From Gemmatimonadota bacterium (GTDB taxonomy: Bacteria > Gemmatimonadota > Gemmatimonadetes > Gemmatimonadales > JACORV01): DNA of 48,969 nt. Position 1 is the stretch's first letter, and every line of letters begins with the position of its first letter. The translations under genes were made by a program, and so were the position numbers. Shown piece after piece: positions 9,506 to 31,479 of the stretch. The stretch lies in contig JACORV010000012.1 in the NCBI GenBank assembly GCA_016179225.1, forward strand, positions 1-48,969, in the 5' to 3' direction. The notes under the pieces were generated by a model. The model saw only the letters and a program-made list of their open reading frames with translations, did no database searches and had not been told where the DNA came from.

Positions 9506-9512
9506 CCAAGAC

Positions 9513-16641: not shown

Positions 16642-16652
16642 GCCGGCGCGCG

Positions 16653-16700
16653 TCCTCACCTCCTCACTTCCTCGCCACATCACCACATCACCACATCACC
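16653..16700 (+). repeat. Six 8-bp tandem units (TCCTCACC-like x3, ACATCACC x3)
   Basis: TCCTCACC TCCTCACT TCCTCGCC ACATCACC ACATCACC ACATCACC, read directly. Confidence 0.85.
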
Positions 16701-16713
16701 GTCCTTCGAGGTG

Positions 16714-16743
16714 TTGACACCGTTCGCTTGCGAACCCTATACT
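16714..16743 (+). promoter_or_regulatory. Near-consensus sigma70 promoter for the USP-to-oxidase operon
   Basis: TTGACA at 16714-16719, an 18-bp spacer, and TATACT at 16738-16743, about 50 bp upstream of ATG 16793. Confidence 0.7.
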
Positions 16744-16792
16744 CGACTTTGATTCTCCCGTACATAATCGAAACACCTGACGCGGGCGTGCG

Positions 16793-18781
16793 ATGTATCA
16801 CGAGATCTTCGTACCCGTCGATAATTCCCAGCCTTCGGACTGGGCGGTTGATCGTGCGATCGAGCTGTGTCGGCGCTCGGGAGGCCGTATCACCGGGAAT
16901 CACGTGTATGCCGCCCGCTTGCACGACGTGCGGTTCCGGCAGCTCGAGACCGGCTTGCCCGCCCGATTCCAGACCCCCGAGGAGATCAGGAAGCAGCGCA
17001 AGATCCACGACAAGCTCATCGAGAAAGGCCTCCAGCTCATCGCCGACAGCTTCCTCGACCAGCTCGGGAAGAGGTGCGAAGCCGCGGGCGTGAAGCTCGC
17101 GCGGCAGCTCCTCGAGGGGATCAACTACGAAGAGATCGTGAACGAGGTGAACCGCGGCCAGGGCCGGCTTCCGGGGCTGATCGGCTTCGATCCCAACCGT
17201 GCGGCGGGTTACGACGGCGGGGAGAAAGTCCGCAGCGACGTGAGGCTCGGCGAGGACGGCCGCATCGTGGCGGAGGACGAGGACCAGGCCGCGCGGCTGG
17301 TCGGGACGTCGCGACGGATATACGACCTCGTCGCGATCGGCGCGCACGGGCTGGGGCGCCAGGCGTACTCCCAGCTGGGCGGTGTGGTCGCCCGGGCGCT
17401 GCGCGGCGTCGAGAAGGACATGCTGATCGTGCGCGACGACCGCCCGTTCGAGGGCGGCCGGTTCATGGTCTGCGTGGACGGCTCGTCGTACGGCTACCAG
17501 GCGATGCGCGCGGCGCTCGAGCTCGCCGACGCCTTCGGCGGATCCCTGTACGTGTGCAGCGCCTTCGACGTGGAGTACCACCACGTCGTCTTCCACAACA
17601 TCAAGGACGTGCTCTCCGTCCAGGCCTCGAAGGTCTTCAAGTTCGAGGAACAGGAGGAGCTGCACAACAACATCATCGACAAGGGGCTCCTGAAGCTCTG
17701 CCAGGCCAACATCAAGCGGGCCGAGGCCATGGCGCAGCAGTTCCCGGACGTCCCGGTCAAGACGCAGATCCTCATCGGCAAGCCGTTCCAGGTGATCATG
17801 CAGTGGGCCGCGGAGATCGAGCCGTCGCTGCTGGTCATCGCGCGGCACGGGGCGCACCGCATCGAGGGCACGGACCTGGGCTCGCAGGCCGAGAACCTGG
17901 TCCGCATCGCCCCCTGCAATACGCTGCTGGTCGGCACGACGGGGATCCGGCCCGAGGACATCCCGTGGATCGAGGAGGACGGTCAGGCGGGGTTGCCGTG
18001 GGCGCCGGAGGCCGAGGTCCGGATTCTGCGCGTGCCACCCTTTGCCCAGGGGATCGCGCGTCGCGCGGTGGAGGAGTACGTCCTGGAGCGCACCAACGGC
18101 GAGCCGCAGACGGTCACGAACCGGTGGCTGGACGAGGCGATCCGGAAGCTCCTTCCCACGCACATGCAGCTCATCATGGGCATCGGCACGGCCGAGGAGA
18201 TCGCGCTCGCCGAAGTGAAGGCCACCGAGCAGATGACGAAGACGCTGGTGCTCGGCAGCGACGCGGACGTCGAGCCCGCCGGAGCCACGATCGAGACGAA
18301 GTGCCCGGTACCGCCGTATCACACCGCGACGCGACCGCGGACGGCCGCCGACCCGATCGTGTGGACCGAGGAGGCGTGGCAGCGGCTTCAGCTCGTGCCG
18401 CTCATCGCACGGCCGCTGGCCCGGAACACCGTCGAGCGCTTCGCGCGCCACCACGATATCTGGCGCGTGACGACCGGCGTGATGGACGACAACAAGCAGG
18501 CCATGATCGAAGCCGACGAGTTCGACATCGACACGATGATGGTCATGTTCACGGAGCTCCGTGCCAAGCAGATCCGCGCCGAGGCCGAAGGCCCCGACGC
18601 GCTCTCGCCCGAGATGCGCCGCTTCATCGAGGAGGCGAAGGCCCAGGGGATCACCCGCTGCCCCATCCGGGACATCGAGGAGCAGCTGGGGAAGTGCCCG
18701 GTGGACTTCAAGACGGTGAAGCCGGAGGACGCGAAGAAAGCGGTGGAGAAGTTGCTGGAAAGCATGCCCGGGGACGACTAG
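16793..18781 (+). CDS. Tandem universal stress protein with two PCP_red-like domains and three Cys-Pro motifs
   Basis: USP1 IFVPVDNS...DLVAIGAHG...LGGV; USP2 MVCVDGS...LLVIARHG...LGSQAENLVRIAPC; WAPEAEVRILRVPPF and WTEEAWQRLQLVPLIAR; KCPV, RCPI and KCPV. Confidence 0.85.
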   Translation: MYHEIFVPVDNSQPSDWAVDRAIELCRRSGGRITGNHVYAARLHDVRFRQLETGLPARFQTPEEIRKQRKIHDKLIEKGLQLIADSFLDQLGKRCEAAGVKLARQLLEGINYEEIVNEVNRGQGRLPGLIGFDPNRAAGYDGGEKVRSDVRLGEDGRIVAEDEDQAARLVGTSRRIYDLVAIGAHGLGRQAYSQLGGVVARALRGVEKDMLIVRDDRPFEGGRFMVCVDGSSYGYQAMRAALELADAFGGSLYVCSAFDVEYHHVVFHNIKDVLSVQASKVFKFEEQEELHNNIIDKGLLKLCQANIKRAEAMAQQFPDVPVKTQILIGKPFQVIMQWAAEIEPSLLVIARHGAHRIEGTDLGSQAENLVRIAPCNTLLVGTTGIRPEDIPWIEEDGQAGLPWAPEAEVRILRVPPFAQGIARRAVEEYVLERTNGEPQTVTNRWLDEAIRKLLPTHMQLIMGIGTAEEIALAEVKATEQMTKTLVLGSDADVEPAGATIETKCPVPPYHTATRPRTAADPIVWTEEAWQRLQLVPLIARPLARNTVERFARHHDIWRVTTGVMDDNKQAMIEADEFDIDTMMVMFTELRAKQIRAEAEGPDALSPEMRRFIEEAKAQGITRCPIRDIEEQLGKCPVDFKTVKPEDAKKAVEKLLESMPGDD

Positions 18782-18787
18782 CTACTC

Positions 18788-20113
18788 ATGGCGGAGATGG
18801 CGACGAGCGTACTTCTCGCCGCGGAGCGGGAAGCGCCCGCGGGGGAGTGTCTCCCGCACGTTGTCGCGTGGAACCTCACGCGGCGCTGCAATCTCCGCTG
18901 CTCCCATTGCTACATCTCCGCCGGCCCGTCCGAGTCCGCGGCCGGCGAGCTCGACACGGCGGCGTGCCGCCGCGTCATCGAGCAGCTGCTGGCGGTGAAC
19001 CCAGCCCCGATGCTGATCCTGTCGGGCGGCGAGCCGCTGCTCAGGGATGACCTCCCCGCGATTGCGTCGTACGCCGCCCGGCGCGGCGCCACCGTCGTGG
19101 TGGGCACCAACGGGACGCTCCTCACCGAGGAGCGCATCGTCGGGCTCATGGAGGCGGGCGTCACCGGGGTGGCGGTGAGTGTGGACTCGCTGCGGCCCCG
19201 CTATCACGACAGTTTCCGCCGCAAGACCGACGCGCTGGCCGACACGATGGGCGCGATCGAGCGGCTCCGGACCCGCCGGCTCGACTTCATCGTGCAGACG
19301 ACCGCCACCCGCGGGAACAAGAGCGAGGTGCCGGCGCTGATCGAGTGGGCCGCCGCACAGGGCGCCGTGGCGTTCAACCTCTACTTCCTGGTGCCGACGG
19401 GGCGCGGCGGCCAGCTCACGGATCTGACGGCGTCCGAGTACGAGGCGCTCCTGGGCGTGCTCGCCGATTACGAGCGCCGGTACCGCGGTGCCATGATGGT
19501 GCGCGCCAAGTGCGCGCCGCACTTCATCCGGCGCGTGTACGAGGAGTCCCCGGGCTCGCCCGTCCTCAACTACCAGACCCGCTGCCCCTGCGGGATCCAG
19601 TACTGCCGGATCACGCCCGAGGGCGCGATCACCCCCTGCCCCTACCTGCCCACGATCGCAGGAGACCTGCGCACCCAGACCTTCGGCGAGATCTGGAATG
19701 GCTCGCCGGTCTTCGCCGACCTCAGGCGGCGGGAGCTGGGCGGCAAGTGCGGGCGCTGCGAGTACCGCCTCATCTGCGGGGGATGCCGGGCGCGCGCCTT
19801 CGCCTCAACCGGCGATTACCTCGCGGCCGACCCGTCGTGCGTCTACGAGCCCCCGGGCGACCGGCCGCTGATCGAGCGGCCCGCGGTGGCGTACGGCACG
19901 CCTGTGGCGCCGACGCTGGCCTGGTCGCCCGAAGCGGAAGAGCGCATGCGCCGCATCCCGTCCTTCGTGCGCGGCGTGGTGATGAGGCGCGTGGAGGACT
20001 TCGCGCGCGCCCGCGGTCTCGGCACCGTCACGCCGGAGCTGCTGAGCGAGATCCGCGGCGCCATGCCAATCGACTTCTCCCGGCGCAAACCCTTCTTCGT
20101 GCGCGATGACTGA
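18788..20113 (+). CDS. Radical SAM/SPASM protein (AhbD/NirJ-like) with C-terminal PCP_red-like domain
   Basis: WNLTRRCNLRCSHC, SGGEPL; SPASM Cys pattern CPCG..C...PC...KCGRCEY..CGGCRARA...DPSC; tail WSPEAEERMRRIPSFVR. Confidence 0.88.
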   Translation: MAEMATSVLLAAEREAPAGECLPHVVAWNLTRRCNLRCSHCYISAGPSESAAGELDTAACRRVIEQLLAVNPAPMLILSGGEPLLRDDLPAIASYAARRGATVVVGTNGTLLTEERIVGLMEAGVTGVAVSVDSLRPRYHDSFRRKTDALADTMGAIERLRTRRLDFIVQTTATRGNKSEVPALIEWAAAQGAVAFNLYFLVPTGRGGQLTDLTASEYEALLGVLADYERRYRGAMMVRAKCAPHFIRRVYEESPGSPVLNYQTRCPCGIQYCRITPEGAITPCPYLPTIAGDLRTQTFGEIWNGSPVFADLRRRELGGKCGRCEYRLICGGCRARAFASTGDYLAADPSCVYEPPGDRPLIERPAVAYGTPVAPTLAWSPEAEERMRRIPSFVRGVVMRRVEDFARARGLGTVTPELLSEIRGAMPIDFSRRKPFFVRDD

Positions 20114-21851
20114 CCTCTTCCCGTTCCTCCAGGCGGCGGCCGACACAGCCGGGGCCTACCACGCCTTTCCCGTCATCGGAAGCCGCGCCGCCACGTGGAT
20201 CGCGGCCGAAGTCCACCTGATGTTCGCCGCCTTCGTCCTCGGCGTGCCGATGTTCGCCGTCATCACCGAGGCGGTCGGCATCTTCACCAAAGATGAGCGC
20301 TACCGGGAGCGGTACGACCGGCTCTCCAAGGAGTTCACGCGCCTCCTGCTGGTGGCCTACAGCGCCACCGCCATCTGGGGTGCGGTGCTCGTCTTCTTCC
20401 TCACCACGCTCTACCCGCGGTTCTGGAACCACATGACAGAGATCTTCCAGCTGTCGATGTGGATCTACGTCGGGCTGTTCTTCGTCGAGTCGTTCACCCT
20501 GTACCTCTACTACTACGGCTGGGACCGCTGGAACAAGGGCCGGGCAAAGTACTGGCATTGGACGCTGGGCATCCTGCTCAACGTCTGGGGCACCGCCGTC
20601 ATGCTGATCGCCAACGGCTGGCTCACCTACATGATGAGCCCGCCCGCGGGCGTCACCGCGCAGACCCTGCCCTCCGAGGTCGGCCTCTGGAACGCCATCG
20701 CCAACGCTACCTGGATGCCGATCAACATCCACCGCCTCATCGCCAACGCCGTCTTCGGCGGATCGATCGTCGCCGCCTACGCGGCCTACCGCTTCCTCGC
20801 GGCCCGGACCGACGAGGAGCGCGCGCACTACGACTGGATGGGCTACGTCGGCAACTTCGTCGCGATCTCCACCTTCATCGTCCTGCCCTTCGCCGGCTAC
20901 TGGCTGGGCCGCGAGTTTTACGAGTACAACCAGCAGCTCGGCATCACGATGATGGGCGGCTTCATGAGCTGGCTCTGGATCCTCCAGGCGTTCCTGATCG
21001 GCGTCCTGTTTCTGGCCGGCAACTACTACCTCTGGATAGGCATGGGCCGCATCCCAGGGGCCGAGCGTTACCGGCCGTACACCAAGTGGCTGCTCATCAT
21101 CCTGATCCTTGGTGTCATCGTGTGGTCTACCCCACACACCATGATCGCGAGCCGCCAGGAGCTCGAGGCGATGGGTGGATCGCACCACCCCTTCCTCGGC
21201 GTGCTCGGCGTCATGAGCGCCAAGAATACCGCCGTGAACCTGATGATCCTCACCACCTTCCTGTCCTTCCTGTTCTACCGGCGCGCCAACAAGCGGCCCG
21301 TCGCGCCGTGGGCGAAGCAGGGGATGCTCGCCCAGTGGATCATGTTCGCGATCGCCGCGATGGTCGTGCTCTTCTTCGGCGTGTACGGTTACTTCGTGTC
21401 CGCCATCGTGCGCATCGGCTTCAGCGTGTACCAGGTGCTCGCCGTGCTCACCACCATCGTGGTGGTCACGACGCTGGACATCTTCCTGCTGCGCGGCGCG
21501 GAATCCAGGGGGGAGATCCGCTGGGGCCAGATGCCCGAACGCTCCCAGTACGCCCTGTTCATCCTGGCCGTGACGTTCACGTGGCTGATGGGGCTCATGG
21601 GCTTCGCGCGCAGCGGCATCCGCCAGCACTGGCACGTCTTCGAGGTCATGCGCGACACCAGCCCGGACGCGGTGACCCCCGCCCTGGGCTACGCCTCGAT
21701 CATGATCAGCGTCTGCGTGCTCATCTTCCTGGGGCTGGTCTCGTTCATCTTCTGGCTCTCCGAGCTGGGCACCAAGCCGGCGGAGGCGCACGCCCCCGCG
21801 GCGCCCGCCCCCGGCGCGGGGCCGGCGACCGCTCCCGCGCCCGGGGACTGA
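20106..21851 (+). CDS. Cytochrome bd subunit I (CydA)-like membrane protein, non-canonical (no Q-loop, no cydB)
   Basis: EVHLMFAAFVLGVP, FFVESF.LY.Y..GWDR, ANGW...MMSP, NIHR, and RQHW (compare GRQPW); many TM helices. Confidence 0.8.
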   Translation: MTDLFPFLQAAADTAGAYHAFPVIGSRAATWIAAEVHLMFAAFVLGVPMFAVITEAVGIFTKDERYRERYDRLSKEFTRLLLVAYSATAIWGAVLVFFLTTLYPRFWNHMTEIFQLSMWIYVGLFFVESFTLYLYYYGWDRWNKGRAKYWHWTLGILLNVWGTAVMLIANGWLTYMMSPPAGVTAQTLPSEVGLWNAIANATWMPINIHRLIANAVFGGSIVAAYAAYRFLAARTDEERAHYDWMGYVGNFVAISTFIVLPFAGYWLGREFYEYNQQLGITMMGGFMSWLWILQAFLIGVLFLAGNYYLWIGMGRIPGAERYRPYTKWLLIILILGVIVWSTPHTMIASRQELEAMGGSHHPFLGVLGVMSAKNTAVNLMILTTFLSFLFYRRANKRPVAPWAKQGMLAQWIMFAIAAMVVLFFGVYGYFVSAIVRIGFSVYQVLAVLTTIVVVTTLDIFLLRGAESRGEIRWGQMPERSQYALFILAVTFTWLMGLMGFARSGIRQHWHVFEVMRDTSPDAVTPALGYASIMISVCVLIFLGLVSFIFWLSELGTKPAEAHAPAAPAPGAGPATAPAPGD

Positions 21852-21858
21852 GGCAACC

Positions 21859-22647
21859 ATGTGGCGCACCAACCTCAAGATCGTTGGCCTGGTCGTAGCG
21901 GTGCTGGGGCTCTACACCCTGGTGGCCAATAGCATCCCGCAGCTCCAGTCGGAACTCCCGCAGGCCGTCGAGCTCTCGGGCGACGTCACTCCGGAACAGC
22001 TGGTCGCGGCCGGCGAGCGCATCTACAACGGCGCCGGCGGCTGCACCGCCTGCCACGGCCTGGGCACCCGCGCGCCCAACTTGCTCACCGACGAGGGCGG
22101 CACGGGCACCATCGGCGCGCGCTGCGGAAGCCGCGTGGCCGGGATGAGCTGTAAGGATTACCTCTACCAGTCGCTGACCGAGCCGGCCGTTCACGTCGTC
22201 GAAGGCTACCAGCCCATCATGCAGGACATGCGCCGCACCCTGCCCGCCGACCAGATCTGGGCGGTCATCGCGTTCCTGGAGAGCCAGGGCGGTACGATCG
22301 ACGTGACGGCCGACGACGTGCGCTCCGCGCAGCAGCCCTCCGGAGGTGGAGGCGCCGCACCGCCGGCCGGCGCGACCGCCAGCCTCGATCCCCGCGAGAT
22401 CATGACCGCCAACGGCTGCCTGGGCTGCCACAAGCTCGGTGACCAGGGTGCGGCCGTCGGCCCGCCGTTCGACGGCATGGGCGGCCGCCTCACGTCCGAC
22501 TTCATCCGCACGTCCATCCTGAACCCTGGCGCCGCGATCGCGCGCGGCTACGAGGCCATGGCCGGCGTGATGCCCCCGACCTTCGGGCAGCAGCTCACCG
22601 CGGGGCAGCTCGAGGCTGTGGTGAGCTTCCTCTCGAGCCAGAGGTGA
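21859..22647 (+). CDS. Membrane-anchored diheme cytochrome c
   Basis: N-terminal TM segment; CTACH and CLGCH, each followed by a candidate distal Met (PIMQ, VMPP). Confidence 0.9.
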   Translation: MWRTNLKIVGLVVAVLGLYTLVANSIPQLQSELPQAVELSGDVTPEQLVAAGERIYNGAGGCTACHGLGTRAPNLLTDEGGTGTIGARCGSRVAGMSCKDYLYQSLTEPAVHVVEGYQPIMQDMRRTLPADQIWAVIAFLESQGGTIDVTADDVRSAQQPSGGGGAAPPAGATASLDPREIMTANGCLGCHKLGDQGAAVGPPFDGMGGRLTSDFIRTSILNPGAAIARGYEAMAGVMPPTFGQQLTAGQLEAVVSFLSSQR

Positions 22648-22651
22648 GCCC

Positions 22652-23509
22652 ATGAGCGAGCCCACCCCCGGCGCCCGCGTCCGGTTTCCCCGCCTGTCGC
22701 CGGCCGAGCTGCGCGCCGCGCTCCGCCATCCGTTCTGGCAGGCGGTCGCGCTCCTCGTCGGCTCATACGTCCTCTTCAAATTCGGGGTCCGGTACCTGCC
22801 GCCGCTCCTCGGGATGAAGAGCGCCCCCGTACCGGCGAGCGTGCTCACGCAGTTCATGGTCACGGCCCTCGTCGGGATCCTGATCTACGTCAGCGACAGC
22901 GAGGACCGGTGGCGCCATTTCAAGGAGCCGATCCACGCCGGGCTCGTGGACGCCGACAAGAAGTGGATCCGTGGGACGCTACTGGTGCTGGTGCCTCTGA
23001 CTGTGGCGTTCATGACGTACGAACGGGTGCGACCCAGCCTGGAGGCGGGCGCGCAGCTCCGCTCGATCCATCCCGCGCCACCCGGCACGATAACCTTCCG
23101 CGGCAAGACGATGGCCCTGGCGGGGCTGGAGAACCCGCTGCGCCAGCAGGGCAATCTAGCCGACCAGTTGGTCGAGGGGCGGCGGGTCTACTACGAGAAC
23201 TGCGTCTTCTGCCATGGCGACCGGTTCGACGGCCTGGGCCACTACGGCCACGCCTTCAACCCCGCGCCGCTCTCCTTCACGGACCCCGGCACGATCGCCC
23301 AGCTCACCGAGAGCTTCGTGTTTTGGCGCATCGCCAAGGGCGGGCGCGGCCTGCCGAGCGAGGGCACGCCCTGGAACTCCGCCATGCCCGCCTGGGAGGA
23401 CTTCCTGACGGAGGACGAGATCTGGTCGGTCATCATCTTCCTCTATGAACAGACCGGCTGGCACCCGCGCACGTGGGGGGAAGAGGGAGGCGCCGATGCG
23501 CAGCCGTAG
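22652..23509 (+). CDS. Membrane-bound monoheme cytochrome c
   Basis: Three hydrophobic segments, then ENP...CVFCHG...SAMPAW. Confidence 0.9.
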   Translation: MSEPTPGARVRFPRLSPAELRAALRHPFWQAVALLVGSYVLFKFGVRYLPPLLGMKSAPVPASVLTQFMVTALVGILIYVSDSEDRWRHFKEPIHAGLVDADKKWIRGTLLVLVPLTVAFMTYERVRPSLEAGAQLRSIHPAPPGTITFRGKTMALAGLENPLRQQGNLADQLVEGRRVYYENCVFCHGDRFDGLGHYGHAFNPAPLSFTDPGTIAQLTESFVFWRIAKGGRGLPSEGTPWNSAMPAWEDFLTEDEIWSVIIFLYEQTGWHPRTWGEEGGADAQP

Positions 23510-25112
23510 GGCGCTGGCGGGAGCCGCGGCCGGCCTCGCCGCGGGTCTGGCCTTGCTCGCCGCGGCCGCCGCGCCGCGGCACCAGCAGCCCGCCACCCAG
23601 GCCGACGACGAGGGGCGCCGCGTTTACGACAAGTGGTGCGCGGGGTGCCACGGCGAGGATGGCCGGGGGGACGGCCCAGGGGCCGGACCCGTGCTCCCCA
23701 AGCCGCGCGACTTCACCCGCGCCCTCTACCAGGTCCGCACCACGGCGACCGGCGAGATCCCCACCGACGCCGACATCCGCCACGTCGTGGACGAGGGGAT
23801 GCCCGGCACCAGCATGCCGGCCTGGAAGACCACCCTGTCGGGCGGCGAACGCGAGGCGGTCGTGCGGTACCTGAAGAGCTTCTCATCCGCCTTCGCGACC
23901 GCTCCGACGGCGCTCCGATTCGGACGGAATCCCGGCGGCGGCCGCGCGGCGGTGGACTCCGGAGGCGCGCTCTACCGCCGCATCGAGTGCTGGAAGTGCC
24001 ACGGCGAGGCCGGGCGCGGCGACGGCAGATCCGCCCCGACCCTGAAGGACGACTTCGGCAACCCGATCCGCGCCACGGACCTCACGCAGAACTGGACGTT
24101 CAACGGCGGCGCTTCGGTGGAGGACATCTACCGAGTCCTCCGGACCGGGCTCGACGGCACGCCCATGCCCTCGTTCAGCGACCTCATCGAGGGCAACATC
24201 ATCACCGACGACGACCTCTGGCGGGTCGCGACCTATGTCCGCAGCCTCTCGCCCGAAGAGCCTCCGCGCGTGCGCGACGTGGTGAGCGCGGCGCGGATCG
24301 AGGGCTCCCTCCCCGCCGGCCCGGACGACAGCGCCTGGGCGCGAGCGGACGGGTACTACTTCCCGCTGGTCGGCCAGGTGATCGTTAAGCCCCGCTGGTT
24401 CGCGCCCACGGTGAGCGGCGTCTGGGTGCAGGCGCTGCACAACGGGCAGGCACTGGCCCTGCGGGTCACCTGGCACGACCCGTCCCAGAGCCCGGACACG
24501 TCCTGGAACGTCTGGCGCGGTCGGATCACCCGCTCCATGACCTCCGACGACTCGGTGCCGGCGGACACCACTTCGCCCCTTCCCGACCGCCTGGCCGTGC
24601 AGTTCCCTGCCCGCGTTCCGAGGGGGATGGAGCGCCCTTACTTCCTCATGGGCAGCGCCGAACAACCGGTGTATCTTTGGCAGTGGGAAAGCGAGCCGAG
24701 GGCGGCCGCGGAGGGCCTGGCGAGGGGTGTGGGACAGTTCGAGCCGCTCGCGGGCGCCGCGGATACGTTGGCATCGGCCGCGGTCTACGATCATGGCGAA
24801 TGGCGCGTCCAGTTGGTGCGGGCGCTGGCCACCGCCGACTCGGCCAACCAGTTGCAGTTCGTGCCCGGTCGCGCCATCCCCATGGCGATCTTCGCCTGGG
24901 ACGGCTCGAACGGCGAGACGGGTACGCGGATGTCGGTCGGTTCCTGGGTTGCCATTTACCTGGGCGAGCCCGCGCGCGCGGGCACGTACCTGTGGCCGCT
25001 CTTGGCGATGCTCTCGACCGGCGGCCTGGGACTGGTGGTCATCGTGCGGGCGCAGCGGTCGGCAGGATCTTCGAAGCAACCTTCAGACACAGCGGATTCG
25101 GAGGCGGTATGA
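23496..25112 (+). CDS. Diheme cytochrome c fused to an ethylbenzene dehydrogenase gamma (EB_dh/DOMON)-like heme-binding domain, with C-terminal TM
   Basis: ATG 23496 follows GGAGG. Motifs CAGCHG..G.GDGP, PRDFT, GTSMP, CWKCHG, GTPMP, then W.DPS, DRLAVQFP, PYFLMG, GEWRV, FAWDG. Confidence 0.85.
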   Translation: MRSRRALAGAAAGLAAGLALLAAAAAPRHQQPATQADDEGRRVYDKWCAGCHGEDGRGDGPGAGPVLPKPRDFTRALYQVRTTATGEIPTDADIRHVVDEGMPGTSMPAWKTTLSGGEREAVVRYLKSFSSAFATAPTALRFGRNPGGGRAAVDSGGALYRRIECWKCHGEAGRGDGRSAPTLKDDFGNPIRATDLTQNWTFNGGASVEDIYRVLRTGLDGTPMPSFSDLIEGNIITDDDLWRVATYVRSLSPEEPPRVRDVVSAARIEGSLPAGPDDSAWARADGYYFPLVGQVIVKPRWFAPTVSGVWVQALHNGQALALRVTWHDPSQSPDTSWNVWRGRITRSMTSDDSVPADTTSPLPDRLAVQFPARVPRGMERPYFLMGSAEQPVYLWQWESEPRAAAEGLARGVGQFEPLAGAADTLASAAVYDHGEWRVQLVRALATADSANQLQFVPGRAIPMAIFAWDGSNGETGTRMSVGSWVAIYLGEPARAGTYLWPLLAMLSTGGLGLVVIVRAQRSAGSSKQPSDTADSEAV

Positions 25113-25891
25113 GCGGATGGCGCAGGGCGTCGGCGAAGATCGCGTTCGGGGCGTGGGTGGTGGCTGCCGGGTGCGGTAAGGGCGGGGAAAGCGGCGGTGC
25201 GGAGGGCGGTGCGGCGGCGGCCGCCACAGCGTTCCCGGTGGACACTACCACTGCTGCTACGATCACCGGCCGCATCGCCTTCACCGGGACCAAGCCCGCG
25301 ATGCAGCGGATCGACATGAGCGAGGAGGCGACCTGCGCCCAGAAGCACCCCGATGGCGCCTTCACCGAGTCGGTTGTCGTCAACGACGACGGCACGCTGC
25401 GGAACGTCTTCATCTACGTGAAGAGCGGTCTCCCCGCGAACCTCACCTTCCCGGTGCCGAGCGCGCCGGTCGAGATCGACCAAGACGGCTGCGTGTACCT
25501 GCCGCACGTCTTCGGCATTCAGGTGGGCCAGACGCTCAGCATCAGGAACAGTGACGGCCTGCTGCACAACATCAAGGCCGTGCCCACGACCAACCGGCCC
25601 TTCAACATCAGCCAGCCGATGAACATGACCACGGCGCGCACCTTCGCGAGCTCCGAGATCATGGTGCCGCTGCAGTGCAACGTGCACAGCTGGATGAGCG
25701 CTTTCGTCGGCGTGCTGCCGCACCCGTACTTCTCAGTCTCCGGCGCCGACGGCGCGTTCCGGATCGGCCGCCTCCCGCCGGGAACGTACGAGATCGAGGC
25801 CTGGCATGAGCGCCTTGGCCCGCAGACCCAGACGGTGACGGTCGGGGCGAGCGAGACCAAGGACGTCGCGTTCACCTTCCGCGGCTCCTGA
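25109..25891 (+). CDS. Lipoprotein with cupredoxin-like core and carboxypeptidase-regulatory-like domains
   Basis: Lipobox-like VAAGC; DQDGCVY.PHV, NSD..LHN, CNVHSWM, PGTYEIEAWHE. Confidence 0.8.
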   Translation: MSGWRRASAKIAFGAWVVAAGCGKGGESGGAEGGAAAAATAFPVDTTTAATITGRIAFTGTKPAMQRIDMSEEATCAQKHPDGAFTESVVVNDDGTLRNVFIYVKSGLPANLTFPVPSAPVEIDQDGCVYLPHVFGIQVGQTLSIRNSDGLLHNIKAVPTTNRPFNISQPMNMTTARTFASSEIMVPLQCNVHSWMSAFVGVLPHPYFSVSGADGAFRIGRLPPGTYEIEAWHERLGPQTQTVTVGASETKDVAFTFRGS

Positions 25892-25922
25892 GGCCGCGGG
25901 CTCTTCGGCGCGGAGAAGCCTC

Positions 25923-26639
25923 ATGCAGCATTGGTGGTTCCCGACCAGCGCCTCCAGCTACGGCGCGGAGCTGGACAATCTCTTCGTCCTGATCCTCTAC
26001 ATCACGGGGGCGGTGTTCGTCATCGTGGAGGTGGGCCTGCTGGTCTTCCTCGTCAAGTACCGGAAGCGCGAGGGCCGGAAGGCGGAATACATTGAGGGGA
26101 ACACCACCGCCGAGATCGTCTGGACGACGATTCCCGCGGTCGTGTGCGTCTTCCTGGGCCTCTTCAGCCAGCCGCTCTGGTCGCGCATAAAGGACCCGGC
26201 GCGCATCCCGGCCGACGCCATCCCGCTCGAGGTCACAGCCAAGCAGTTCGAGTGGCACTTCGGCTATCCCGGCCCCGACGGGCAGCAGGGCACCGCCGAC
26301 GATTACGGGAAGCGGAACGAGCTGCACGTCGTGGTGAACCAGAATTACCGGGTCCGGCTCCAGGCCGAGGACGTTATCCACAGCTTCTTCATCCCGGTCT
26401 TCCGCCTCAAGCAGGATGCGGTGCCGGGGATGCAGATCATGGCCTGGTTCAGGCCCACGCGGACCGGCCAGTTCGAACTGGCCTGCGCCGAGCTCTGCGG
26501 CCTCGGTCATTACCGCATGCGCGCGCGCGTCTTCGTGCACACCCCGGAGGAGTTCGCGGCCTGGCAGGCCAGCCAGATCGCGCCCACCACTCCGGCCGCC
26601 TCCGACACCACAGCGAGCAGCGGGAGGACCGCTAGATGA
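25923..26639 (+). CDS. coxB: Cytochrome c oxidase subunit II
   Basis: EIVWT..P, QFEW.F.YP, DVIHSF, KQDAVPG, CuA motif CAELCGLGHYRM. Confidence 0.97.
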   Translation: MQHWWFPTSASSYGAELDNLFVLILYITGAVFVIVEVGLLVFLVKYRKREGRKAEYIEGNTTAEIVWTTIPAVVCVFLGLFSQPLWSRIKDPARIPADAIPLEVTAKQFEWHFGYPGPDGQQGTADDYGKRNELHVVVNQNYRVRLQAEDVIHSFFIPVFRLKQDAVPGMQIMAWFRPTRTGQFELACAELCGLGHYRMRARVFVHTPEEFAAWQASQIAPTTPAASDTTASSGRTAR

Positions 26640-28387
26640 CCACCGCAGGTGTGGCCGCCGAGCACCTGGAGCACGCGCTCCACGATGACCGGCCGTTCAT
26701 CCGGAAGTACGTCTTCTCGACCGATCACAAGATCATCGGCATCCAGTTCCTCTTCCTGAGCCTGTTCTTCCTGCTGGTGGGCGGCGTCCTCGCGATGGTG
26801 ATCCGCTGGCAGCTCGGGTTCCCGGGCAAGGCGATGCCGCTCCCCGGCGCGTGGCCAAGCACCATGGCGCCCGACGGCGTGGTGCTCCCCGAGTTCTACA
26901 CCGCGCTGGTGACCATGCACGGCACGTTCATGGTTTTCTTCGCCATCATGCCGCTCTTGGTGGGGGTGTTCGCGAACTACCTGATCCCGCTCAAGATCGG
27001 GGCGCCGGACATGGCTTTCCCCAGGCTCAACATGTGGTCGTTCTGGTTGATGATCCCGGCCGGGGCGCTCATGGTGGCCGGTTTCTTCGTGGAGGGCGGC
27101 GCGGCGTCCTCCGGCTGGACCGGCTACGCGCCGCTCTCGGCCAACCCGGAGTACACCGGCGCCACGTACGGCCAGCAGCTCTGGTGCCTCAGCCTCATCG
27201 TCTTCGCGCTCTCTTCGCTGCTGGGCTCCGTCAACTACATCACCACGGTCGTGAACCTGCGCGCCCCGGGGATGACGTGGTTCCGGCTGCCGCTCTCGAT
27301 CTGGGCGCTGTTCATCACCGCGATCCTCGCGCTCCTGGCGGTGCCGATCCTCGCCGGCGCCCTCATCATGCTCCTCTTCGATGTCGTCCTGCACACCAAC
27401 TTCTTCCTGCCGGCCGGCGGCGGGCAGCCCCTGATGTGGCAGCACCTCTTCTGGTTCTTCGGCCACCCGGAGGTGTACATCCTGATCCTGCCGGCCATGG
27501 GTATCGCCTCCGACCTCATCGCCAACGGGTCGCGCAAGCCCATCTTCGGCTACCACTCGATGGTCTACGCGATCTGCGGCATCGCCTTCCTCGGCTGGGT
27601 GGTGTGGGGCCACCACATGTTCCAGAGCGGCATGAACCCGCGGCTCGGAACCACCTTCATGGTCTCGACGATGTTCATCGCCGTGCCGTCGGCCATCAAG
27701 GTGTTCAACTGGATGGGCACGATGTGGCGTGGGAATATCCACTTCACCACGCCGATGCTGAACGGAATCGCCTTCGTCGCGATGTTCACCATCGGCGGGC
27801 TCAGCGGCATCTTCATGGCCGCCACGCCGGCGGACATGTACATCCACGACACGTACTACATCGTGGCGCACATCCACTACGTCCTGTTCGGCGGCAGCCT
27901 CTTCGCGATCTTCGGCGGCATCTACTTCTGGTTCCCGAAGATGTTCGGGAAGATGATGAGCGAAAGGCTGGGCAAGATCCACTTCGCGCTCACGTTCGTC
28001 GCCTACAACCTGACGTTCTTCCCGATGCACATCCTAGGCATCGGCGGCCACATGCGGCGCATCTACGACCCGTCGCAGTACGAGTTCCTGCGCCCGCTCC
28101 AGCCGATGAACGAGTTCATCTCCTTGAGCGCGTTCGCGCTGTTCATCAGCCAGCTGCCGTTCATCTGGAACTTCTTCCACAGCCTCTTCTGGGGGAAGAA
28201 GGCCGACATCAATCCGTGGCACGACAACGGCCTCGAGTGGACGGCTCCTTCGCCCCCGCCGCACGGCAACTTCGAGACGACGCCGACCGTGTACCACGGC
28301 CCGTACGAGTTCAGCCGGCCCGACATGGAGCAGGACTACCTGCCCCAGAACCAGCCCCTCCCGGCCCCGCAGCCGGTCGCCCACTGA
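26636..28387 (+). CDS. ctaD: Cytochrome c oxidase subunit I, A1 type
   Basis: TDHK.IG, TMHG, DMAFPRLN, WFFGHPEVY, WGHHM, HDTYYIVAHIHY. Confidence 0.98.
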   Translation: MTTAGVAAEHLEHALHDDRPFIRKYVFSTDHKIIGIQFLFLSLFFLLVGGVLAMVIRWQLGFPGKAMPLPGAWPSTMAPDGVVLPEFYTALVTMHGTFMVFFAIMPLLVGVFANYLIPLKIGAPDMAFPRLNMWSFWLMIPAGALMVAGFFVEGGAASSGWTGYAPLSANPEYTGATYGQQLWCLSLIVFALSSLLGSVNYITTVVNLRAPGMTWFRLPLSIWALFITAILALLAVPILAGALIMLLFDVVLHTNFFLPAGGGQPLMWQHLFWFFGHPEVYILILPAMGIASDLIANGSRKPIFGYHSMVYAICGIAFLGWVVWGHHMFQSGMNPRLGTTFMVSTMFIAVPSAIKVFNWMGTMWRGNIHFTTPMLNGIAFVAMFTIGGLSGIFMAATPADMYIHDTYYIVAHIHYVLFGGSLFAIFGGIYFWFPKMFGKMMSERLGKIHFALTFVAYNLTFFPMHILGIGGHMRRIYDPSQYEFLRPLQPMNEFISLSAFALFISQLPFIWNFFHSLFWGKKADINPWHDNGLEWTAPSPPPHGNFETTPTVYHGPYEFSRPDMEQDYLPQNQPLPAPQPVAH

Positions 28388-28402
28388 GGAGAACGACGCG
28401 CG

Positions 28403-28999
28403 ATGTCGCACGCCGCCACGCACACCATTGAGCACGCCGAAGAAGGCCTGGGCGTCTACACCCAGAAGCTGGGGATGTGGGTCTTCCTCTGCTCCGAGGT
28501 GATGTTCTTCACGGCCCTCATCGGCTCGTACATCATCCTCCGCTGGGGCAGTGCGGAGAGCTGGCCGGTGCCGGCGGAGACGCTCAACATCCCCGTCACG
28601 GCCCTCAACACTTTCATTCTCATCTGCTCTTCGGTTTCGATGGTGAAGGCGTACGCGGCCGCCGTCCACGACGACCAACGCGGCCTCAAGCGCTGGCTGC
28701 TCACCACCGTGTTGGGCGGCGCCACGTTCGTCGGGGTCCAGGCCTACGAGTACATCCACCTGATCGGGAAGGGCTTCCTGCCGAGCTCGGGCCTCTTCGG
28801 GTCCACCTTCTACACGATGACCGGCTTCCACGGCTTCCACGTCACCTGCGGCGTGATCTCGATGGCCTACTGCACGCTGCGGGCCTTTCGCGGGAAGTAC
28901 GCCGGCGGCAACTTCCACGGCATCGAGACCGTCGGCCTGTACTGGCACTTCGTGGACCTGGTCTGGATCATCCTGTTCACCATCGTCTATCTGTTCTAG
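28403..28999 (+). CDS. ctaE: Heme-copper oxidase subunit III (short form)
   Basis: GMWVFLCSEVMFF, NT.IL..SS, TGFHGFHV, YWHFVD.VW. Confidence 0.96.
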   Translation: MSHAATHTIEHAEEGLGVYTQKLGMWVFLCSEVMFFTALIGSYIILRWGSAESWPVPAETLNIPVTALNTFILICSSVSMVKAYAAAVHDDQRGLKRWLLTTVLGGATFVGVQAYEYIHLIGKGFLPSSGLFGSTFYTMTGFHGFHVTCGVISMAYCTLRAFRGKYAGGNFHGIETVGLYWHFVDLVWIILFTIVYLF

Positions 29000-29012
29000 G
29001 AGCCGCCGCGCC

Positions 29013-29291
29013 ATGGCGACCGCCGAGCACAAGCATCCGAACTACATCGCCATCTGGATCTACCTGGCCGTGCTCACGGGGGTGGAGCTCGTAGTGGCGC
29101 TGCTCCACTTCCTGCCGCGCCAAATGCTGATCGGGGCGCTGATCTTCCTCGCCATCTGGAAGGCGCTGCTGGTGGCGCTCTACTTCATGCACCTCAGGTT
29201 CGAGCCCAAGCGGCTCGTCGTCATGGTCCTCGCGCCGCTGCCGCTCGCCGTCATTCTCGTGCTGTTCGTCATGACGGAGTTCGGCAAGTGA
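29013..29291 (+). CDS. Cytochrome c oxidase subunit IV family protein
   Basis: LT.VE, KA.LV..YFMHLRFE. Confidence 0.9.
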   Translation: MATAEHKHPNYIAIWIYLAVLTGVELVVALLHFLPRQMLIGALIFLAIWKALLVALYFMHLRFEPKRLVVMVLAPLPLAVILVLFVMTEFGK

Positions 29292-29476
29292 TCGCCTTCC
29301 ACCGTCTCCTCATCGGTACGGCGATCGTGTTCTGCGCCGGCTTCGCCGTGTGGGGGTGGCGGGAGTACCAGGCCGCCGGCACCACGTGGGCGCTCGCGTC
29401 GTCGCTCGCCTTCGGGGTCTTCGCGGTCGGGCTCGCCGTCTACCTCGCCATGTTGAAGCGGTTCCTCGGCCAATGA
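29288..29476 (+). CDS. Small two-TM membrane protein
   Basis: 62 aa with two hydrophobic helices; 4-nt overlaps with both neighbours. Confidence 0.7.
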   Translation: MIAFHRLLIGTAIVFCAGFAVWGWREYQAAGTTWALASSLAFGVFAVGLAVYLAMLKRFLGQ

Positions 29477-30432
29477 CCGCTTCGCAGGACCACAACCGCT
29501 CCCTGCACCGCTACGCCGTCGCCGTCGCATGCGCCACCTTCGTCCTGGTCGTTGCGGGCGGCCTGGTGACGAGCACCGGCTCGGGCCTCTCCGTCCCCGA
29601 CTGGCCGCTTTCCTTCGGGACGCTCTTCCCGACGATGGAGGGCGGCGTCCGCTTCGAGCACACCCATCGGCTCATCGCCGCGACCGTGGGGGCGCTGACG
29701 GTGGTCCTCGCCCTCTGGTTGGCCCGCCGCGAGCCCCGGGGCTGGGTTCGCGGGCTCGGCTTCGCCGCCGTGGGCGCCGTCATCGTCCAGGGCGTCCTCG
29801 GCGGGCTCACCGTGCTGTTCAAGCTGCCGGCGCCGATCTCGGTCGCCCACGCGAGCCTGGCGGTGGTCTTCTTCGGCCTCACCGCATCGCTGGCGCTCGT
29901 CACCTCGCCGAGCTGGCTCGCCCCGCCGCACCCCGAGTCCGACGCGGGCAGCCCGTCCACCCGGATCCTCGCCCTCACGACCGCGGCCGCGATCTATTTC
30001 CAGATCCTCCTGGGGGCGCTGGTGCGCCACACCGGCGCCGCCCTCGCGATTCCGGACTTTCCGCTCGCCTTTGGACGGCTCCTCCCGCCGATCACCTCGT
30101 CGCTGGTCGCCTACCAGCTCGCGCACCGCGCCGGCGCCGCCGTGGTCGGCCTCCTGGTGCTCTGGACCGCGATCCGGGTGCTGAGACGCCATGGCGCCCA
30201 GCCCCTGCTCCGCCGGCCGGCGCTCGCCCTGGTCGCCCTCCTCGGCTTCCAGATCTTACTCGGCGGACTGACGATCTGGACGCGGAAGGCGGTCATTCCC
30301 ACCACCGCGCACGTGGCGACCGGAGCGCTGCTGCTCGTAACGTCGGTGATGCTCGCCCTGCGCGCCCAGCACCTCCTGTTGGCCCCGACGGGCGCGCACC
30401 AGGCGCTCGCCCCCCAGGGCGCGACCACATGA
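29473..30432 (+). CDS. ctaA: Heme A synthase (COX15/CtaA)
   Basis: ATG 29473. GG.VTSTGSGLSVPDWP, EHTHR, QGVLGG.TV, plus further His-bearing helices. Confidence 0.9.
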   Translation: MTASQDHNRSLHRYAVAVACATFVLVVAGGLVTSTGSGLSVPDWPLSFGTLFPTMEGGVRFEHTHRLIAATVGALTVVLALWLARREPRGWVRGLGFAAVGAVIVQGVLGGLTVLFKLPAPISVAHASLAVVFFGLTASLALVTSPSWLAPPHPESDAGSPSTRILALTTAAAIYFQILLGALVRHTGAALAIPDFPLAFGRLLPPITSSLVAYQLAHRAGAAVVGLLVLWTAIRVLRRHGAQPLLRRPALALVALLGFQILLGGLTIWTRKAVIPTTAHVATGALLLVTSVMLALRAQHLLLAPTGAHQALAPQGATT

Positions 30433-31319
30433 GCGCGTCGGTCGGGCTGCCGGCCCACCCGCTCGCCCGCGCGCGGCTCGCGGACTTTCTTGCCCTGACC
30501 AAGCCGCGGATCACGCTGCTGGTGGTCCTCACGACATCCGTCGGCTTCCTCGCGGCCGCGGGCAGCTCCGCCGATTTGGTGCTGCTCGTCCACACCCTCG
30601 CCGGCACGGCGCTAGTCGCCGCCGCCGCCAGCGCGCTCAACCAGGTCGCCGAGCGGGAAGCGGACGCCGAGATGCGCCGCACCGCGCGCCGCCCCCTGCC
30701 CGCCGGCCGGCTCGCGACCGGTGAAGCCGCCGTCTTCGGCGCGGCCCTGGCCCTTTCGGGCGCCCTGTACCTCGCGGCCGCGGTGAACCCGCTGGCCAGC
30801 GCCCTCGCGGTGCTGACCGCGGCGAGTTATCTGCTGCTCTACACGCCGCTCAAGAAGGTCACGTCCCTCGCCACCGTGGTCGGCGCCGTGCCCGGCGCCA
30901 TGCCGCCCATGATCGGCTGGGCGGCGGCGCGCGGGACCCTCGGAGTGGAGGCGTGGATCCTCTTCGCGATCGTCTTCTTCTGGCAGATGCCGCACTTCCT
31001 GGCCATCGCGGCGATCTACCGCCACGACTACCAGCGCGCCGGTTTCCGGGTGCTTCCCGTCGTGGACCCCGCGGGCGCGAGCACCGGCCGGCAGTCCGCA
31101 CTCTACGGCCTGGCCCTCATCCCGATCAGTCTGCTCCCCTCCTTCGTGGGCCTGGCGGGGCCAGGCTATTTCTTCGCGGCCCTCCTCCTCGGCATCGGGT
31201 TCGTGCTGCTCAGCGTCAGGCTCGCGCTCGATCCCTCGAGCCTTGGAAAAGCCCGCAGCCTGTTCAGGTTCTCCCTGATCTATCTGCCGCTCCTCTGGAC
31301 GGCGCTGCTGGTCGGCTAG
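30429..31319 (+). CDS. ctaB: Protoheme IX farnesyltransferase (heme O synthase)
   Basis: LTKPRI, D.EMRRT.RRPLP.G, YTPLK, GAVPGAMPP.IGW, WQMPHF, DY.RAG. Confidence 0.96.
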   Translation: MSASVGLPAHPLARARLADFLALTKPRITLLVVLTTSVGFLAAAGSSADLVLLVHTLAGTALVAAAASALNQVAEREADAEMRRTARRPLPAGRLATGEAAVFGAALALSGALYLAAAVNPLASALAVLTAASYLLLYTPLKKVTSLATVVGAVPGAMPPMIGWAAARGTLGVEAWILFAIVFFWQMPHFLAIAAIYRHDYQRAGFRVLPVVDPAGASTGRQSALYGLALIPISLLPSFVGLAGPGYFFAALLLGIGFVLLSVRLALDPSSLGKARSLFRFSLIYLPLLWTALLVG

Positions 31320-31468
31320 TGCCGCTACAACTGTTCGGCTGCGGTCAGTCGAGGGCTGAAGCCCTCGCTCGGCGTTGGCGCGTCCTGAAGGACGCCGCCT
31401 CGGGCACGCTTCAGCGTGCGCCGGAGGCCGAGCGAGCCCTTCAGGGCTCGACTGCCTCGGGTCACTAG
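31316..31468. repeat. REP/REPIN-like element with four hairpins
   Basis: Hairpins at 31350-31367 and 31380-31395 (TGAA loops) and at 31404-31419 and 31433-31450 (TTCA loops). Outer inverted repeats CAGTCGAG/CTCGACTG; bounded by CTAGTG...CACTAG. Confidence 0.7.
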
Positions 31469-31479
31469 CCCTCCCCCCC

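Follow-up and report, generated by a model that had tools for sequence, protein, structure and literature searches.

A bd-like four-gene module lies directly upstream of an aa3 oxidase

The subject of this analysis is a cluster of respiratory genes in a 48,969-nucleotide (nt) stretch of DNA, referred to below as the window, from a metagenome-assembled Gemmatimonadales genome (GenBank assembly GCA_016179225.1, contig JACORV010000012.1). In this cluster, genes for a CydA-like protein and three cytochromes c (c1, c2, and c3) directly precede those for a cupredoxin lipoprotein and an aa3-type oxidase. Features and kinship place the four-gene unit, hereafter called the module, with the OR-N ("bd-like") group within the cytochrome bd superfamily. 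This kind of module is already known; what appears to be new is its frequent placement 5' of a cupredoxin-aa3 operon in nonnitrifying phyla, together with its gene fusions and its links to ActA/ActB/ActE and ActD, components of alternative complex III (ACIII). The module fills no gap left by a missing complex III, and we tentatively favor a function as a cytochrome c-fed O2 reductase.

A previous sequence-only reading of the window had described a same-strand run of a CydA-like protein, three cytochromes c with five CxxCH motifs, an EB_dh domain, a CxxHxxM lipoprotein, and coxII-I-III-IV. All of these elements were present on the plus strand between positions 20106 and 29291:

20106..21851 (+), CydA-like (OR-N type, "bd-like") membrane protein of 581 amino acids (aa); PF01654, E = 8.3e-18
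21859..22647 (+), c1, N-terminally anchored diheme cytochrome c of 262 aa with one transmembrane (TM) segment; Pfam Cytochrom_C, E = 8.4e-16
22652..23509 (+), c2, 285 aa, polytopic N-terminal membrane part and C-terminal monoheme cytochrome c; PF13442, E = 1.5e-8
23445..25112 (+), c3, diheme cytochrome c with an EB_dh (NxrC/EbdC-type) domain and a C-terminal TM helix; PF13442, E = 2.6e-22
25109..25891 (+), lipoprotein with a cupredoxin (type 1 copper) domain and a C-terminal CarboxypepD_reg beta-sandwich; PF13620, E = 4.9e-8
25923..26639 (+), coxB, subunit II, with the CuA motif CxxxCxxxHxxM and no fused cytochrome c; TIGR02866, 158.2 bits against a cutoff of 147.7
26636..28387 (+), coxA, subunit I, A-family heme-copper oxidase; PF00115, E = 2.7e-150
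28403..28999 (+), coxC, subunit III; PF00510, E = 7.7e-29
29013..29291 (+), coxD, subunit IV; PF03626, E = 5.4e-14

The five CxxCH motifs are distributed 2+1+2 over c1 (residues 62 and 187), c2 (residue 184), and c3 (residues 65 and 182), and C184, C187, and H188 of c2 were invariant in 12/12 aligned sequences. The EB_dh domain of c3 was recognized by PF09459 (E = 3e-20), and c3 also matched NCBIfam TIGR03477 at E = 9.4e-27, under the cutoff of that family. The true start of c3 is likely Met18, at position 23496. We rejected c1 as an ActE homologue, since the similarity reached only E = 0.026, with no significant likeness beyond the heme motif. As the sequence-only reading had noted, no cydB, bc1, or ACIII gene was found in the window; ACIII is encoded on another contig of the genome (C30 in the assembly numbering, in which the window contig is C145).

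The CydA-like protein has a bd fold without the quinol-binding loop

The PF01654 match covered residues 26 to 550 of the CydA-like protein (64.6 bits against a cutoff of 26.2), and a motif scan found no CxxCH in it. Its AlphaFold2 model (pLDDT 88.2, pTM 0.86) contains 13 long helices, and the top 10 Foldseek matches of this model in the PDB were all CydA (bd subunit I) chains (E from 3.4e-9 to 2.1e-6; TM-scores by target 0.51 to 0.66). Profile alignment to Escherichia coli CydA (probability 93%) was significant only over residues 26 to 211, which comprise the first five helices. Within this part, H37, E128, and H209 correspond to H19, E107, and H186 of E. coli CydA, and the equivalents of these three residues were conserved in 95%, 79%, and 95%, respectively, of 38 diverse homologues. 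The Q-loop, with Lys252 and Glu257, has no counterpart. In its place, the model has helices at residues 287 to 315, 323 to 340, 370 to 393, and 403 to 430, and these four extra helices fall between the parts that match E. coli helices 6 and 7.

The retention of H19, E107, and H186 and the loss of Glu99 and the Q-loop had been read by eye from the sequence and were borne out by the profile alignment and the model. The accompanying claims that RQxW is retained and that E445 has become a serine (Ser503) are plausible: RQxW was matched only in two nonsignificant alignments (probability 1.3%; domain score −0.6), and the C-terminal alignment to E. coli CydA, likewise nonsignificant (probability 1.3%), would put Val444 and Ser503 at Met393 and Glu445.

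Several of the best-conserved residues of the family lie in or near the inserted helices, with Tyr308 and Pro343 at 100% and Trp310, Thr342, Glu352, and Lys373 at at least 92% in the family alignment. In the model, the conserved residues Glu55, Lys148, His151, Asp243, Tyr308, Trp310, and Arg315 are near the cytoplasmic helix ends, and Thr342, Pro343, Glu352, Lys373, Arg502, and Arg506, also conserved, are on the periplasmic side of the inserted helices. This pattern of polar residues would suit either a proton path to a buried heme or a new quinone site. Many homologues bear an extra N-terminal hydrophobic stretch (helix or signal) that is missing from the window protein; a longer N terminus for the window gene was considered and rejected, as just 20 open codons lie upstream (open frame of 601 versus 581 aa).

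Databases label the protein "cytochrome ubiquinol oxidase subunit I," which speaks for an ordinary quinol-oxidizing cytochrome bd with cydB located elsewhere, the finding that the sequence-only reading had named as one that would count against it. The fold of subunit I and the equivalents of His19, Glu107, and His186 are common to the window protein and canonical CydAB (E. coli 6RX4/6RKO, Geobacillus 5DOQ). However, the window protein differs from canonical CydAB in lacking CydB, the Q-loop, and Glu99, in having the four extra helices instead, and in its partners, which are c-type cytochromes. Neither CydB (PF02322) nor cytochrome b gave any match in the window's own assembly, which is 71.8% complete, and CydB was absent from all five large assemblies of other carriers (0/5). 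In a 41-row tree, a branch 8.6 changes per site long set E. coli CydA apart from the family. With no CydB, no Q-loop, and Glu99 lost, a canonical CydAB quinol oxidase is contradicted, and we give an ordinary cytochrome bd a negligible likelihood. The window's assembly contains a single CydA match and no second copy. Some other Gemmatimonadota (G061, G087, and G128) hold a second CydA-like paralogue elsewhere in the genome, 51 to 53% identical.

The module belongs to the OR-N branch and matches a cluster of nitrite oxidizers

According to the available part of the preprint by Murali, Gennis, and Hemp (bioRxiv 10.1101/2021.01.16.426971), OR-N proteins lack a quinol site, and those of the N1 and N2 groups have 14 helices; N2 often occurs without a second CydA-like gene and with other electron carriers in the operon. 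The window protein shares the absence of a quinol site and of heme c motifs in subunit I and keeps the His19 equivalent; with 13 helices modeled here, it may fall in the roughly 14-helix class. OR-C proteins carry heme c motifs in subunit I and have about 8 helices, in contrast to the window protein with its 13 helices and no CxxCH. Placement in the bd superfamily, which the sequence-only reading had called for, put the protein in the OR-N branch and not in qOR or OR-C. In the 41-row tree, it grouped with other Gemmatimonadota (SH-aLRT 100), and a Nitrospira clade (SH-aLRT 100) belonged to the same family.

Matches to the CydA-like family in a representative library numbered 1148 clusters with E ≤ 0.001, of which 233 reached E ≤ 1e-30. 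One member (P0141), 40% identical to the window protein, belongs to a cluster named Nitrospira/Manganitrophaceae, and another, 38% identical, to a cluster named among Nitrospira/Manganitrophaceae/Nitrospirota. A Nitrospirota-like metagenome contig (L091) encodes a 47%-identical orthologue followed by homologues of c1, c2, and c3, with a second, more distant CydA-like paralogue a few genes away. Relatives of this orthologue are named "Candidatus Nitrospira bockiana," Nitrospira sp. Kam-Ns4a, and Nitrospirales, and both the orthologue and the paralogue fell with the Nitrospira clade in the tree.

Lücker et al. (2013) described a bd-like cluster shared by Nitrospina, Nitrospira, and Kuenenia; it comprises a 14-helix bd-like oxidase in which helices replace the Q-loop, mono- and diheme cytochromes c, an "alternative NxrC" with two heme c sites, and cupredoxins (available part of PMC3578206). 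In N. moscoviensis, bd-like_3, alt_NxrC_2, and two membrane cytochromes c were among the top 40 transcribed genes, and a duplicate, bd-like_4, lies near bd-like_3 (Mundinger et al., 2019; available part of PMC6606698). Both papers state that the module is conserved in anammox bacteria. Judged by gene types and kinship, the window four-gene unit is the same as the Nitrospira cluster of bd-like_3, two cytochromes c, and alt_NxrC_2. The Nitrospira, Nitrospina, and anammox versions have the same four gene types, helices in place of the Q-loop, and cupredoxin genes nearby; their counterpart of c3 combines its two heme c sites with TM anchors and a heme b domain of the dimethyl sulfoxide reductase type. 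The window differs from them in lacking nitrite oxidoreductase (NXR), its neighbors being heme biosynthesis genes, the cupredoxin lipoprotein, and aa3; in its 13 modeled helices, without the helix or signal that many homologues have at the N terminus; and in its host, a Gemmatimonadales metagenome-assembled genome and not a known nitrite oxidizer.

The sequence-only reading was thus correct that bd-like proteins without a quinol site are known from Nitrospira, where the same gene set occurs. Its description of the cluster as an uncharacterized respiratory module holds as to "uncharacterized," and the module itself had already been described, as the OR-N/bd-like module of Nitrospira, Nitrospina, and anammox bacteria. 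We found no literature joining "bd-like" with Gemmatimonad*, and broader searching gave just community surveys and the Nitrospina paper. Gemmatimonadota are not mentioned in the available text of Murali et al., whose Figure 1 or supplements may already show such contexts.

The four-gene core is constant and its neighbors vary

We compared 80 related loci, found with a closer 20-sequence alignment, of which 54 were from Gemmatimonadota and 26 from other groups. Gene presence was scored only at loci with enough sequence; the loci are kin, and the counts are not independent events. c1, c2, and c3 were present at 70/70, 64/64, and 56/56 loci, respectively, across eight taxon groups, and the order CydA-like-c1-c2-c3 was conserved in 56/56. 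This strict linkage to a heme c wire of a bd fold devoid of quinol loop and CydB upholds the central observation of the sequence-only reading. Besides Gemmatimonadota, the taxa with the module were Methylomirabilota/Rokubacteria, Chloroflexi, Acidobacteriota, Rhodothermaceae, and Nannocystaceae.

The lipoprotein was found at 48 of 53 loci, coxB at 44 of 53, and coxA at 43 of 49. The supposed linkage to cox genes therefore stood for most loci, comprising Gemmatimonadota (32/32 for coxA), Rokubacteria/Methylomirabilota (9/9), and Chloroflexi (1/1), and failed in NC10 (0/1), Acidobacteriota (0/2), Rhodothermaceae (0/1), and Nannocystaceae (0/1). As judged from gene content, the four-gene core is the constant part and aa3 a lineage-dependent addition. 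In a few loci (L012, L013, and L046), a second cox cluster (CoxA 44 to 47% identical) was seen upstream of the universal stress protein (USP) gene.

Natural fusions join neighboring members of the core. One family representative (P0121; 889 aa) is a fusion of CydA-like protein and c1, its residues 621 to 884 aligning with c1 residues 7 to 260 (E = 6e-39), anchor included; other representatives carry one C-terminal CxxCH. c2 and c3 form one open reading frame (ORF) in 5 of the 24 loci examined, two from NC10 (L060 and L062) and three unclassified. These c2+c3 fusions, of 727 to 839 aa, are as follows:

L060, 12464-14647
L062, 8623-10902
L074, 12552-14810
L086, 10366-12591
L065, start uncertain

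Because the core is invariant among the loci and both kinds of fusion occur, these data argue that the four proteins form one complex.

A radical SAM gene lay within 4 kb upstream in 52/74 loci, and 26 of the 34 loci with full flanks had a USP gene no more than 10 kb to either side of the CydA-like gene. The radical SAM gene was also found, in another order, in the Acidobacteriota, Rhodothermaceae, and Nannocystaceae loci, often with USP and NUBPL-type ATPase genes. Linkage of the module to an AhbD/NirJ2-like radical SAM gene and USP, with varying gene order, thus extends to five taxon groups; no radical SAM gene was seen within 10 kb in Rokubacteria (0/6), nor in the Nitrospirota-like contigs. 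An accessory set (radical SAM, USP, NUBPL/Mrp ATPase, and small proteins, several of them with PCP_red domains) travels with the module across phyla and occupies the following positions:

Window, 7446-9505 and 16793-20113
L060, 7877-9194
L081, 14772-20541
L083, 14869-21175
L085, 8743-13012

This set could serve O2-independent heme b synthesis or heme modification for the complex.

The module does not take the place of complex III

The sequence-only reading had proposed, as one of two alternatives, that the bd fold feeds aa3 in place of complex III and suggested verifying whether genomes with the cluster lack bc1 and ACIII. Contig C30 of the same genome encodes a full ACIII, namely, ActA (5 CxxCH), ActB, ActC (NrfD), ActD (PF11821, E = 1.8e-44), ActE (1 CxxCH), and ActF. 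In a sample of 151 Gemmatimonadota genomes (149 of high quality, 82 genera), the CydA-like gene was present in 43 (42/149 high-quality genomes; 25/82 genera) and ActD in 144 (143 of high quality); G058 and G098, both unpublished, are among the genomes in the ActD tally. None of the 43 carriers came from a family with a scored genome lacking ActD, and the five large carrier assemblies contained ActD (5/5) and mostly cytochrome b (4/5). The family of the window genome is represented by two sampled genomes, both without the module. One of them, from a sister genus and 100% complete, has an orthologous coxBACD-ctaAB-DUF420 operon (CoxA 77% identical) with neither module nor lipoprotein upstream. 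Thus, aa3 does not need the module, since the sister genus has the orthologous operon without it, and the module fills no complex III gap, since a full ACIII is encoded in the genome and ActD is found throughout the carrier families. Together with the module's occurrence away from cox genes in other groups, these results contradict the proposed replacement.

The module is nevertheless related to ACIII in its gene context. Both are membrane complexes with multiheme c subunits and stand 5' of cox genes in many genomes; unlike ACIII, the module has no NrfD-type subunit (ActC/ActF) or ActB in the window. In four Acidobacteriota loci, ActA-, ActB-, and ActE-like genes, coding for a multiheme c7-type cytochrome, a 1041-aa iron-sulfur (FeS) protein, and a monoheme cytochrome c, stand directly upstream of the module:

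L081, 5463-9785
L082, L084, and L087, approximately 5400-9800

Upstream sequence is too short at L080, one of the two remaining Acidobacteriota loci, and a USP gene stands upstream at the second, L089. None of the 80 loci gave an ActC/ActF (NrfD-type) match, and the ActA-ActB-ActE-plus-module arrangement looks like a hybrid ACIII/bd-like operon. In the Longimicrobiales assembly G005, a single case, the only ActD match is the N-terminal domain of c1 (48% identical to the ActD of the window genome; E = 4e-44), connected by a repeat-rich linker, and the ACIII cluster, at a distance of 55 kb, has the order ActA-ActB-ActC-ActE-ActF, with no ActD. The ActD-c1 fusion was located as follows:

L032, 11542-13260
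L102, G005 contig 1, 660000-676000

The NxrC/EbdC-type domain contacts FeS subunits in type II dimethyl sulfoxide (DMSO) reductase enzymes, in which EB_dh usually pairs with four-cluster FeS subunits. The Acidobacteriota operons and the ActD-c1 fusion tie the module to ACIII-type partners and fit a contact with ActB-type FeS modules.

These contexts bear on a first rival to the O2 reductase, a quinol/quinone:cytochrome c oxidoreductase on a bd scaffold, with a new quinone site in the four inserted helices. Electrons would pass from b hemes through the c-heme wire to aa3, and in reverse in nitrite oxidizers, parallel to ACIII and not as its replacement. In the four Acidobacteriota loci, the CydA-like gene takes the place of ActC/ActD/ActF after ActA-ActB-ActE, while NrfD-type genes are absent from the 80 loci; the most conserved residues of the family (Tyr308, Pro343, etc.) lie in the inserted helices and loops; and the module is directly 5' of cox in 43/49 loci, with genes that overlap or nearly touch. 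Besides, a role resembling ACIII was suggested for the Nitrospina cluster in 2013, the complex III-like idea is in print for Nitrospira as well, and the module is present in anammox bacteria (available parts of PMC3578206 and PMC6606698). However, no quinone site could be identified and the known quinol residues are missing; the 43 carriers all belong to ActD-bearing families and so offer no vacancy; the His19 and Glu107 equivalents are kept, for which a pure quinol dehydrogenase would have no obvious use; and the orthologous aa3 of the sister genus works without the module. On balance, we regard this oxidoreductase as somewhat unlikely.

The idea can be taken further. The module may represent a third kind of quinol/quinone:cytochrome c oxidoreductase, with a bd fold, that plugs into ActB/NxrB-type FeS proteins through its NxrC-like domain and runs forward in aerobes and backward in nitrite oxidizers and anammox bacteria. 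If this rather unlikely proposal were true, the forward direction would here supply the cupredoxin and aa3 with electrons, either in parallel with ACIII or bound to it, and in the ActA-ActB-ActE-CydA-like operons of Acidobacteriota, which would be natural hybrids, the CydA-like protein would have taken over from ActC/ActF.

Alternatively, the module may be a noncatalytic membrane anchor or electron hub, whose NxrC-like domain docks FeS partners (NXR, ActB type) and relays their electrons through c and b hemes to an oxidase, in the window to the cupredoxin and aa3. Such a hub would agree with the four-cluster FeS subunits that accompany EB_dh and with partners that vary by lineage, from NXR (in the literature) to ActA/ActB/ActE, aa3, and the ActD fusion. 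Yet a protein of 13 to 14 helices with conserved buried His, Glu, and other polar residues exceeds the needs of a relay, for which c-type cytochromes alone could serve, and at an NC10 locus (L060) and a Rhodothermaceae locus (L083), the module has none of NXR, ActA/ActB/ActE, aa3, or the ActD fusion within 10 kb. We consider a hub decidedly unlikely.

A cytochrome c-fed O2 reductase is the favored reading

The reading that we favor, with somewhat less than even confidence, is that the module is a cytochrome c-fed O2 reductase. The four proteins would form one membrane complex at the cytochrome c level of the chain, whose periplasmic heme wire and NxrC-like domain would accept electrons from a periplasmic partner of the iron-sulfur/ACIII type, in this genome the separately encoded ACIII. 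Hemes at His37 and His209 would use these electrons to reduce O2, with cytoplasmic protons arriving past Glu128; this is the least certain part. The module would then act as another terminal oxidase next to aa3, probably one suited to low O2, with both drawing on one wire, and the cupredoxin lipoprotein would be the donor to the CuA site of aa3. The second alternative of the sequence-only reading, in which a single heme wire serves two cytochrome c-fed terminal reductases, may hold. We prefer this reading because the His19 site and the channel residue are kept and because the module is linked to O2-independent heme synthesis-type and stress genes; the radical SAM/USP linkage may be taken as a hint of low O2. 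Murali et al. likewise proposed, from the retained His19 site, that OR-N proteins are O2 reductases with an alternative donor (available part of bioRxiv 10.1101/2021.01.16.426971).

Several points weigh against an O2 reductase. E. coli Glu99 aligns to Tyr121, beside a one-residue deletion, and is thus lost. Alignment gave no significant counterpart of Met393 or Glu445, so that a three-heme bd-type site is at most putative, and no invariant Met/Lys/His pair was found in the EB_dh domain among 60 sequences, where the best candidate heme b ligands were Met402 (39/60) and His332 (40/60), so that heme b binding there is likewise putative. Anammox bacteria carry the module although they are strict anaerobes, which fits an O2 reductase poorly (available parts of PMC3578206 and PMC6606698). 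Two alternative oxidases would rarely be so tightly cotranscribed, which would accord better with the module and aa3 acting in series. Because the membrane subunits that normally carry ActB-type FeS proteins bind quinol, the CydA-like protein of the Acidobacteriota operons may just as well stand in for ActC. Finally, a 2024 study of Nitrospinota states that experimental confirmation is lacking for OR-N enzymes (available part of PMC10839748).

The same article notes that canonical bd oxidases react with nitric oxide (NO) and peroxide, which would suit a cytochrome c-fed reductase of another small oxidant (NO, H2O2, or a nitrite-derived compound), acting as a detoxifying or anaerobic terminal enzyme. 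The presence of the module in anaerobic anammox bacteria and its linked O2-independent heme synthesis-type radical SAM and USP genes would agree with such an enzyme, for which the family offers no specific sequence signature and the window no denitrification genes; we see only a slim chance for it.

Genomic surroundings of the module

The source assembly has 1.81 Mb in 154 contigs, and the closest protein relatives of the window genes carry the names Gemmatimonadales or Gemmatimonadota. G+C along the window is 65 to 75%. The public runs with the largest shares of the window (0.81 to 0.90 of words) are three groundwater metagenomes, all from one study and perhaps the sample from which the genome came; no RNA data set was among the listed public runs with the window sequence.

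Every gene from 2538 to about 32550 is on the plus strand. From the radical SAM gene through coxD, neighbors overlap or lie at most 31 nt apart, the radical SAM stop overlapping the start of the CydA-like gene by 8 nt, and the coxD-ctaA gap is 58 nt. A scan of the window found no terminator-like site between the genes of this run. Because the genes overlap or sit 4 to 58 nt apart, the run from radical SAM to cta is probably one transcription unit. A promoter-like consensus match upstream of the USP gene, the sole match across 14000 to 33000, where 1.0 is expected by chance, may mark its start, its position being at most suggestive. The features that flank the module and cox genes are as follows:

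4759-5826 (+), ChdC fused to a Rieske domain
11327-14263 (+), Ser/Thr kinase of 978 aa, interrupting the heme cluster
16714..16743 (+), sigma-70-like promoter match TTGACA-18-TATACT (11/12), in the 151-nt gap 5' of the USP gene
16793..18781 (+), 662-aa protein that combines USP domains (Pfam Usp, E = 3.3e-31) with two PCP_red domains (E = 2.4e-16)
18788..20113 (+), AhbD/NirJ2-group radical SAM/SPASM enzyme that ends in a PCP_red domain (Pfam); NCBIfam scores of 299.6 bits (AhbD) and 297.6 bits (NirJ2), each short of the 500-bit cutoff
29350..30432 (+), ctaA, heme A synthase; PF02628, E = 1.3e-37
30429..31319 (+), ctaB, heme O synthase, UbiA family, start approximate; PF01040, E = 1.4e-53 on the long ORF of the frame
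Downstream of ctaB (+), DUF420 gene

The longest ORF in the ctaB frame (29529-31319; 596 aa) overlaps ctaA in another frame. A ctaA-ctaB fusion was rejected, as third-position G+C shows ctaA (29350-30432) and ctaB (from about 30429) to be separate.

A complete coproporphyrin-type heme pathway (2538-16641, plus strand) stands directly upstream of the USP/radical SAM/module run and comprises HemA (GluTR), HemC, ChdC-Rieske, CpfC (ferrochelatase), CgoX, HemD, HemB, HemE, and HemL. A NUBPL/Mrp-type ATPase, a small PCP_red protein, and a ferredoxin are also encoded among these genes; PCP_red domains occur four times within the window. With the downstream ctaA and ctaB, the region reads as a 30-kb heme-and-respiration island. 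Annotation of the whole window revealed no other respiratory, denitrification, molybdopterin, or NXR gene, and the minus-strand rest consists of unrelated outer membrane and peptidase genes.

In the lipoprotein, which has the lipobox AAGC and the motif C-x2-H-x2-M, His153, Cys190, His193, and Met196 were invariant in 18/18 aligned orthologues, those of the 48 loci with a match where a lipobox-bearing start could be set. Its profile matched PDB sequences of a blue copper protein (5fc9_A, E = 6.6e-5), plastocyanin (E = 0.0075), and amicyanin. The window coxA is the only COX1 match in the assembly. Two more NrfD-type membrane proteins are encoded on contigs C42 (approximately 25016-29446, minus strand) and C31 (434-4815), next to large ORFs of 791 aa plus 242 aa and of 946 aa, respectively; these loci probably encode other molybdopterin/FeS-type respiratory enzymes.

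Significance for the bd-like family

What the bd-like/OR-N module does has been in question ever since a Nitrospira genome first became available, although the module is highly transcribed in N. moscoviensis (available part of PMC6606698). Our results show that it is not tied to nitrite oxidation, as it is carried by 42 of 149 high-quality Gemmatimonadota genomes and by further phyla, with four genes as the constant part and aa3, ActA/ActB/ActE, or NXR as variable neighbors. This constant core, its variable neighbors, and its spread beyond nitrifiers narrow the plausible roles to an enzyme or a hub at the cytochrome c level. The fusions of CydA-like protein with c1, of c2 with c3, and of ActD with c1 constitute concrete predictions of subunit contacts, and hosts other than the slow-growing nitrifiers are now on offer for testing the module.

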